Of a DNA stretch of 64,000 bases, positions 13,016-16,544 are shown piece by piece. The DNA is from Candidatus Bathyarchaeia archaeon (lineage in GTDB: Archaea > Thermoproteota > Bathyarchaeia > Bathyarchaeales > Bathycorpusculaceae). Numbering within the stretch: position 1 is the stretch's first letter; the number at the start of each line of letters is the position of its first letter. The stretch is from positions 1-64,000 of the forward strand of contig JBEKXL010000012.1 of assembly GCA_049512075.1 (NCBI GenBank), given 5' to 3'. Below the pieces are notes generated by a model. That model was not told the DNA's origin. It ran no database searches and saw nothing but the letters and a program-made list of their open reading frames with translations. The position numbers and the translations under genes were made by a program.

Positions 13016-13176
13016 CGCGCGCGCGTGACTAGTGCCCGCGAAGAGATATAAGGCTTAGGACCCGTGCTGCAATGTTTACTGGGTTCAAAAGAAATGGGCA
13101 AACGAAGAGGAGCAGCGGAAATATTGATGTTAGCCAAGGCTTGGCTATGGTGTCTTCTGGTTGCGGGCTCGCTGAT

Positions 13177-13324
13177 TGGTGCCGTTCGCCCTGACGGAGG
13201 CTTGCTCCGGCAGTGGGGCGGGATTCGAGCCCGCGACTTCTGGACATTGGGCGCCTTTTAGTGCCCCGTTTGTTGTTCTCCAGATTATGAGTCTGGCGCC
13301 CTGGCCAGGCTAGGCTACCCCGGC
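13177..13324 (-). tRNA. Elongator tRNA-Met(CAT) with two introns (45/46: 13238-13277; 68/69: 13185-13214), CCA encoded
   Basis: Removing both introns gives a 78-nt cloverleaf GCCGGGG...CCAGA-CT-CAT-AA-TCTGG-AGGTC-GCGGG-CTCGAAT-CCCGC-CCCCGGC-ACCA; BHB-type motifs at both junctions. Confidence 0.9.
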
Positions 13325-13405
13325 GTGTGGTTCTTGGCTATTTTGTTTGAGAAGGGTTGATTTAAGGTTATTTATGCAGTTGTCAAGTTAGGCGTGCATG
13401 AATGT

Positions 13406-16467: not shown

Positions 16468-16544
16468 TGGAGCCTCGGGCGGGATTTGAACCCGCGACCC
16501 CCGCCTTACCAAGGCGGAGCCCCACCAGGCTAGGCTACCGAGGC
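16468..16544 (-). tRNA. tRNA-Thr(GGT), no intron, CCA encoded
   Basis: GCCTCGG...CCGCC-TT-GGT-AA-GGCGG...GCGGG-TTCAAAT-CCCGC-CCGAGGC-TCCA. Confidence 0.95.

Follow-up and report, generated by a model that had tools for sequence, protein, structure and literature searches.

A probable BHB intron in the 3′ acceptor strand of an elongator-type tRNA-Met gene of Bathyarchaeia and its predicted trailer-assisted fold

The strict BHB motif (hBHBh′) consists of two 3-nt bulges on opposite strands with a 4-bp helix between them. The positions of archaeal tRNA introns are given as 20/21 to 59/60 in the relevant passages of Yoshihisa (2014, PMC4090602), in which 3/4 is called "an extreme case" and 45/46 is on the position list. 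The insert described here, that is, the second of two in a tRNA-Met gene of a Candidatus Bathyarchaeia archaeon, resembles the non-canonical BHB introns of Thermoproteales and other Thermoproteota: it is short, its BHB is formed partly from exon sequence, the gene has more than one intron, and the genome encodes a predicted two-subunit endonuclease of the crenarchaeal type. On the modeled structure, it differs from the known archaeal BHB introns in its 3′ acceptor position (68/69, unlike every intron listed in these passages, 3/4 included), in its cost to the T-arm, as the BHB is built at the T-stem’s expense, and in needing, according to the computed folds, a conserved trailer helix that lies outside the mature tRNA. 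Unlike the transposing introns of Thermoproteales, it has no sibling copy elsewhere in the genome.

In the split tRNA genes of Nanoarchaeum equitans and others, and in permuted tRNA genes, a leader or trailer outside the mature tRNA also pairs to build or stabilize the BHB that is cut, according to the passages of PMC4090602 used here. The tRNA-Met gene differs from these in being a single colinear transcript, in having a trailer that would pair with the mature T-arm instead of another leader, and in that the endonuclease would not remove this trailer. A split or permuted gene is ruled out, since all three exons are colinear within 148 nt. In Cyanidioschyzon merolae and in closely set archaeal introns, the order of splicing is set by which BHB can form (PMC3728597 and PMC8450103, in the sections compared), and a similar logic is proposed for the tRNA-Met gene; unlike C. 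merolae, the proposed order is between splicing and 3′-end maturation and not between two introns. The introns of C. merolae lie in the D, variable, and T regions, with no acceptor-stem intron among the 42 listed in the compared part of Soma (2013, PMC3728597).

No literature naming an archaeal intron at 68/69 or a trailer-assisted BHB was found among the papers compared, and a prior listing in a figure or database is possible. In detail, neither is named in the portions consulted of Yoshihisa (2014), Fujishima and Kanai (2014), Chan (2011), Kanai (2015), Soma (2013), Popow (2012), Fujishima (2008), Sugahara (2012), a 2026 preprint on Asgard tRNA introns, and the tRNAscan-SE 2.0 paper. The words "acceptor," "noncanonical intron," and "Bathyarchae" had no match in a word search of the tRNAscan-SE 2.0 supplement.

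The window, that is, the whole stretch of 64,000 nt that was analyzed, carries the tRNA-Met gene on its minus strand. Its anatomy, the empty sites in related genomes, the covariation, the enzyme genes, and the co-occurrence and energetic effect of the trailer were all computed. The features of the gene are as follows.

13177..13324, minus strand: tRNA-Met(CAU) gene, 148 nt, with genomically encoded CCA (from the sequence, and from ARAGORN after removal of the inserts by script)
13278..13324, minus strand: exon 1, tRNA positions 1-45 (5′ acceptor strand, D-arm, anticodon arm with CAT, A44 and G45)
13238..13277, minus strand: intron 1, 40 nt, at 45/46 in the variable region, with a relaxed BHB (boundaries from the sequence and a script check)
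13215..13237, minus strand: exon 2, positions 46-68 (3′ part of the variable loop, T-arm, C66-C68)
13226..13234, minus strand: 5′ strand of the T-arm and first loop bases (GCGGGCTCG), partner of the T-stem 3′ strand in the mature tRNA and of the trailer in the precursor fold proposed below
13185..13214, minus strand: intron 2, 30 nt, at 68/69 (between C68 and C69)
13213..13205 with 13199..13191, minus strand: inner stem of intron 2, with its loop at 13204..13200
13190..13187, minus strand: central-helix strand GGCG of intron 2, which starts with A (i1) and ends with AA (13186..13185)
13177..13184, minus strand: exon 3, positions 69-76 (CGGC, A73, CCA)
13163..13171, minus strand: 3′-trailer element CGAGCCCGC, exactly complementary to G49-G57 (13234..13226) in the 5′ strand of the T-arm

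The 5′ acceptor strand is GCCGGGG (13324..13318), the anticodon arm CCAGA-CTCATAA-TCTGG with anticodon CAT, and the T-arm GCGGG-CTCGAAT-CCCGC. The 3′ strand of the T-stem, CCCGC (13222..13218), is followed by CCC (13217..13215), and CGGC-A-CCA (13184..13177) comes directly after the 30-nt insert, all on the minus strand. The variable region spans 45 nt in place of the expected 5-nt loop, and intron 1 shows a central helix CTGG/CCAG, bulges AGA and AAG, and an inner helix ACA/TGT without an outer helix. With both inserts taken out, the mature tRNA folds in silico as a cloverleaf of −37.2 kcal/mol. An insert at 45/46 is also seen in the orthologues of nearly all relatives fetched across the order, and the orthologue L029 has an uninterrupted variable loop (AGGTC). 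Ordinary chromosomal genes flank the tRNA-Met gene (for ribose-5-phosphate isomerase, an OB-fold RPA-like protein, an RNase H-like protein, and DUF362), and neither an integrase nor a mobile element adjoins it in the window. An uninterrupted tRNA-Thr(GGT) is located 3 kb away (window 16468-16544, minus strand, 62.8 bits), and thus intron-free and heavily interrupted tRNA genes coexist in this genome.

The pairings that the earlier note had proposed for a strict BHB at 13185..13214 are all present base for base. The outer helix has 2 bp (C61C62/G70G71) and, after an internal loop, is extended by the 9-bp helix of the trailer. The central helix has 4 bp, between C63-G64-C65-C66 (13220..13217) and the intron strand GGCG (13190..13187). 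Two 3-nt bulges, C67 C68 A and A A C69, lie on opposite strands, and the inner helix (3 bp + 5 bp) is the stem CTG.CGGAG/CTCCG.CAG around a 5-nt loop. Cuts after the second base of each bulge excise exactly 13214..13185, and the resulting 3′ strand is the one found uninterrupted in related genomes; the restoration of the acceptor strand by such cuts, claimed beforehand from this DNA only, therefore has a natural counterpart in the empty-site alleles of 24 out of 30 related loci. The insert thus shows every element of the strict hBHBh′ motif, that is, 3-nt bulges, a 4-bp helix, flanking helices, and a cloverleaf restored on excision. When the insert was shuffled 200,000 times, an in-register combination of a 4-bp central and a 3-bp inner helix arose by chance in 74 cases. 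In the unconstrained minimum-energy fold, the central helix has 5 bp, with C67 paired to intron G24 and a register that is one base off for cutting; the strict 4-bp BHB is 0.7 kcal/mol less stable than this fold.

The insert at 68/69 is a real feature and almost certainly a spliced intron of the known archaeal BHB kind, as its anatomy, the empty sites, the covariation, the status of the gene as the sole one of its type, and the EndA and RtcB genes all indicate. The fuller proposal, which we hold to be very probable, is that the 30 nt of 13214..13185 form a protein-spliced intron of the sole elongator-type tRNA-Met(CAU), with a trailer-assisted fold and with splicing as the first step of maturation.

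Standard tRNA finders had been expected to see a truncated gene, and this was borne out with both programs used. The Rfam tRNA model matches only 13320..13215 (model positions 5-66 of 71, 36.1 bits), with the match ending exactly at C68, and ARAGORN does not report the gene either in the window or in the unspliced 148 nt. With only the 30 nt removed, ARAGORN gives a wrong call. With both inserts cut out by coordinate in a script, it called tRNA-Met(cat) in all 30 such trial sequences (31 of the 32 sequences in the trial set gave some call), the gene being 78 nt long once both inserts are removed. According to PMC8450103, tRNAscan-SE 2.0 lengthens its candidates by 60 nt so that introns close to either end are also found. 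Annotation based on Rfam and ARAGORN truncates or misses genes with a 68/69 intron, so that genomes of Bathyarchaeia will seem to be without elongator tRNA-Met or tRNA-Asp unless intron-aware tools are used.

In a DNA search, the tRNA-Met gene was found in 35 of 41 related genomes, and 30 loci were read. The exons are nearly identical across the order. The 30-nt insert is present in five of these loci. One is that of the own genome, three come from the four other genomes of the genus, and the fifth is from a different family within the order. The site is empty in 24, among them the fourth same-genus genome, with CCCGC-CCCC-GGCA unbroken; the remaining locus is cut by a contig end. Because of these empty sites, the boundaries of the insert are defined independently of any folding rule. 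In a BLAST search of 401 genomes sampled across the class, most of the best matches listed (152 more lie beyond those) end at C68, that is, at an empty site or unrelated sequence, and among the same listed matches the similarity continues into the insert in at least four genomes other than the own one, among them those with the loci L101, L102, and L104 described below. When both introns were compared with the whole genome by BLAST, only the locus itself and chance matches of 10-14 nt were returned; recent transposition of an intron within the genome was rejected, as no paralogous copies were found in this way. Orthologous tRNA-Met genes also carry inserts at other places: L011 has one within its T-loop, and L029 and L030 are interrupted in the anticodon stem or loop. 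In the orthologue L021, unrelated sequence takes the place of the 5′ part.

A pattern scan (T-arm, CCCC, gap, GGCG, two free bases, CGGCA) covered one genome per species (12 loci) and metagenome contigs (56 loci). Together with the five orthologous loci this gave 73 rows, and in 65 of them an insert lies at the same place and is always 30 nt long. The remaining eight rows are bacterial-type tRNAs that matched downstream by chance. The archaeal matches are placed in Bathyarchaeia by their record titles. All 65 copies keep the strict motif, the 3′ side of which is partly fixed by the search pattern.

The compensatory changes in homologues that the earlier note had suggested looking for are present. 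Over 40 distinct sequences, 97.0% of the cells are standard pairs, and in eight of the nine pairs of the inner stem both partners have changed (57 cells). The observed score was not reached in any of 500 shuffles, and slid partners pair at 34-48%. As the search pattern prescribed the central and outer helices, these hardly vary in most of the sequences, and the evidence for their covariation comes from two tRNA-Met sequences and the tRNA-Asp set described below. In these two, L101 and L102, the T-stem ends in T instead of C and the intron carries GACG instead of GGCG, so that C65:G becomes U65:A. The central helix therefore occurs in three versions that co-vary between exon and intron: the usual CGCC/GGCG, CGTC/GACG in L101 and L102, and CGGC/GCCG in tRNA-Asp genes with a CCCGG T-stem. 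RNAalifold on an alignment of 52 sequences, in which the trailer columns are partly misaligned, returned the T-arm and the intron hairpin, and neither the BHB nor the trailer helix.

A covariance model built from 52 sequences matches only the tRNA-Met gene in its own genome, and gives a match at E ≤ 0.01 in 32 of 151 genomes of the class. Of 29 new loci found with this model, 17 have the strict motif at 68/69 according to a script test, and 16 of these end in GGGCG-CCA, in the context of a GTC anticodon, with inserts of 21-33 nt. This end and this context identify the 16 loci as tRNA-Asp genes. L104, from the BLAST search across the class, is likewise a tRNA-Asp(GUC) gene, its insert at 68/69 being 28 nt long, and strict-BHB loci of the same kind are spread over many families of Bathyarchaeia (L104, L107-L115, L117-L121, L124, and L126). 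When the 3′ strand of the T-stem is CCCGG, the intron strand is GCCG, and when it is CCCGC, the intron strand is GGCG. The trailers of the tRNA-Asp genes are complementary to the T-arm of each gene itself, which differs from that of tRNA-Met. The 68/69 intron is thus widespread in the tRNA-Met and tRNA-Asp genes of Bathyarchaeia.

In eight of the tRNA-Asp loci (L110, L112-L115, L117, L118, and L124), the 5′ acceptor strand also looks interrupted. Read by eye, it consists of GCCCA, about 20 nt, and then GGTAGTATAG, which would place the insert at 4/5 or 5/6. A possible central helix for these 5′-strand inserts, likewise judged by eye, would draw on bases of the 5′ leader.

The trailer element CGAGCCCGC starts six bases after CCA, and A13161 and C13160 are also able to pair, with U47 and G46, respectively. 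The minimum-energy fold of 13240..13150 is one long hairpin (−35.3 kcal/mol, z −3.1, with one of 200 shuffles as good). It runs from the trailer helix through an internal loop with C72-A76 and the outer helix of 2 bp to the central helix with its bulges, and on to the inner stem. The same hairpin is found in the computed fold of the whole precursor, and without the trailer the T-arm forms instead. For the sequence up to A76, the forced strict BHB has −16.4 kcal/mol versus −21.1 kcal/mol of the forced T-arm, and with the trailer the respective values are −34.6 and −26.0 kcal/mol.

The same comparison was made for 67 distinct loci with a strict 68/69 motif. None of them favors the BHB when the trailer is absent, 60 do so when the native 27 nt are attached, and the other seven are not switched by a trailer of this length. 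The mean difference between BHB and T-arm is +5.2 kcal/mol without the trailer, −4.3 kcal/mol with the native one, and +3.5 kcal/mol with shuffled trailers. Within 30 nt after A73, 39 of 49 distinct intron-bearing loci have a run of seven or more consecutive pairs with the T-arm 5′ strand, versus three of 24 intron-less ones, a set made up of 23 orthologues and L089, a bacterial-type tRNA that is not an orthologue. Among shuffled trailers, 45 of 980 have such a run. As the intron-bearing loci are kin, these trailer counts overstate their independence. The offset of the run is constant in the intron-bearing loci, and the element sits 4-8 nt after CCA across divergent lineages. The changes in the trailer helix are almost all one-sided, from G-C to G-U. 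Splicing ahead of acceptor-stem formation and end maturation, as had been suggested for this gene, gains computed support here: the BHB is favored only with the 3′ trailer attached, and its use of the T-stem 3′ strand together with its need for the trailer is consistent with splicing before the ends are matured.

The genome is 99.76% complete in 86 contigs, with 37 Rfam tRNA matches and 44 ARAGORN calls, many of the latter being mis-typed because of introns. Scans for CAT anticodon arms and T-arms revealed three CAU tRNAs. Besides the present gene there is an initiator (contig C1:200381-200480), with A1..U72 and a GGG/CCC anticodon stem, and an Ile-like tRNA (contig C3:65193-65290) which shares 17 of its first 20 bases with tRNA-Ile(GAU) and is, by this resemblance, a putative tRNA-Ile2. 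Another intact elongator tRNA-Met, which would have weakened the case for splicing, was looked for in the genome with Rfam, ARAGORN, and the anticodon-arm and T-arm scans, and no second elongator-type gene was found.

Two ORFs of the genome, in the regions of C2:114021-114278 and C15:23615-23869, have tRNA_int_endo domains (PF01974/PF02778). The one of 185 aa aligns end to end with PDB entries 2cv8_A (E 6e-42) and 3p1z_B (2e-37); its Tyr/His/Lys positions, which we take to be the catalytic ones, are occupied, and the loop between the N- and C-domains is aligned free of gaps. The other (195 aa) shares 30% identity with it, carries Thr in place of the His, and matches beta-subunit models weakly. 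Judged from their sequences, the two fit a predicted two-subunit enzyme with one alpha-like subunit. This type is linked to broad site specificity in the portion of the literature consulted. An RtcB ligase is also encoded in the genome. A search for RNA data gave 24 runs, each with at most 0.12 of the sampled words. In four of these runs, the contigs cover exon 1 or the T-arm only and continue into the sequence of relatives, where they show another variable intron or an empty site and no joint.

Could the gene be a decaying pseudogene, or a copy damaged by an insertion that is never removed? The four RNA runs, which yielded only contigs of relatives, contain no spliced RNA, and both Rfam and ARAGORN fail on the gene, as a decayed copy would lead one to expect. 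We nevertheless regard this explanation as extremely improbable, given that no other elongator-type tRNA-Met was found in a nearly complete genome, that the exons are so well conserved across the order, and that the length of 30 nt is constant in 65 copies which also show compensatory changes. Just as improbable is a removal of the insert without a BHB endonuclease, through end-processing nucleases and repair or with the 3′ piece supplied otherwise. The parts of the gene are in colinear order, every copy retains the 3-nt bulges and the spacing of 4 bp, and the co-variation of the central helix between exon and intron only makes sense for BHB recognition.

A more serious alternative accepts that the intron is spliced but denies the trailer complement any role in presenting the splice sites. 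The complement would then have come along with the intron as a passenger, by inheritance or transfer, and might be a scar left when the intron-bearing 3′ end arose or was moved. Intron and trailer do appear and vanish together, and the intron-less same-genus genome differs from the first base after CCA onward, which fits the replacement of the whole 3′ end. The mostly one-sided G-C to G-U changes of the trailer helix point the same way, as does L101, where the full gene adjoins a segment of about 10 kb that ends in a partial, intron-less 3′ copy. Against a passenger stand the tRNA-Asp genes with other T-arms, the trailers of which match their own T-arm, the fixed place of the element 4-8 nt after CCA in divergent lineages, and the energetics, as the BHB fold is disfavored without the trailer in all 67 loci. 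Taken together, we consider a passenger trailer unlikely, and a trailer that assists the fold remains the preferred reading.

According to the trailer-assisted proposal, the 3′ domain of the primary transcript would fold as one long hairpin and not as T-arm plus acceptor stem. The trailer CGAGCCCGC would pair with G49-G57 of the T-arm 5′ strand, and the T-stem 3′ strand and C66 would thereby be freed to pair with the intron’s GGCG in the 4-bp central helix. C61C62/G70G71 would serve as the outer helix, C67-C68-A and A-A-C69 as the bulges, and the intron hairpin as the inner helix. From the computed results we infer the actual cleavage and ligation, the processing order, and the trailer’s role: the two-subunit crenarchaeal-type endonuclease would cut after the second base of each bulge, RtcB would join C68 to C69, and until splicing is complete the acceptor stem of 7 bp and the T-arm could not form, nor could the ends mature. 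As acceptor stem and T-arm would form only after ligation, splicing would precede 3′-end processing.

If splicing is confirmed, the positions of tRNA introns extend into the 3′ acceptor strand, the part that is read by end-processing enzymes, CCA handling, and synthetases. The gene would also be a natural case of competition between a splice-site structure and the T-arm in which a trailer helix tips the balance, and the order of splicing and end maturation in archaea would become testable with one transcript and two recombinant proteins. A wider reading is offered tentatively: it is possible that Bathyarchaeia have a class-wide, previously undescribed precursor design of acceptor-stem introns with a splice structure that needs the attached flanks. 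The introns would be those at 68/69 in tRNA-Met and tRNA-Asp, possibly also those in the 5′ strand of some tRNA-Asp. The 3′ trailer would pair with the T-arm, and perhaps the 5′ leader would pair for the 5′-strand inserts. Splicing would be the obligatory first step that licenses folding of the T-arm, cleavage by RNase P and RNase Z, and use of the CCA.

The intron interrupts the 3′ end of the gene, which is the usual target of integrating elements, and it may therefore be gained, lost, or selected via integration. At L101 (G393:C114:39000-52000), the complete tRNA-Met gene has three inserts, and a partial 3′ copy without the 68/69 insert comes about 10 kb after it. The ORF adjoining the gene matches Archaeal phage integrase weakly (23 bits, below the cut-off), and the locus is probably an integrated element at the tRNA-Met gene. 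In the own genome (G000), a tRNA-Gln(TTG) at contig C11:14336-14488 has an insert directly after the 5′ acceptor strand. The T-arm and 3′ end of tRNA-Gln recur six more times, in contig C6 (three places), C29, C39, and at C1:235281, and of these copies four (two in C6, and those in C29 and C39) are preceded by a conserved G-rich palindromic segment. These scattered 3′-end copies look like remnants of attachment sites.

The trailer of the tRNA-Met gene also contains an 8-bp palindrome, TAGCCAAG..CTTGGCTA (window 13131-13147, minus strand), which gave a spurious miRNA match. The octamer TAGCCAAG occurs in the 5′ leader as well (13333-13340, minus strand), so that leader and trailer could pair with each other; it is conserved in the closest relatives only.
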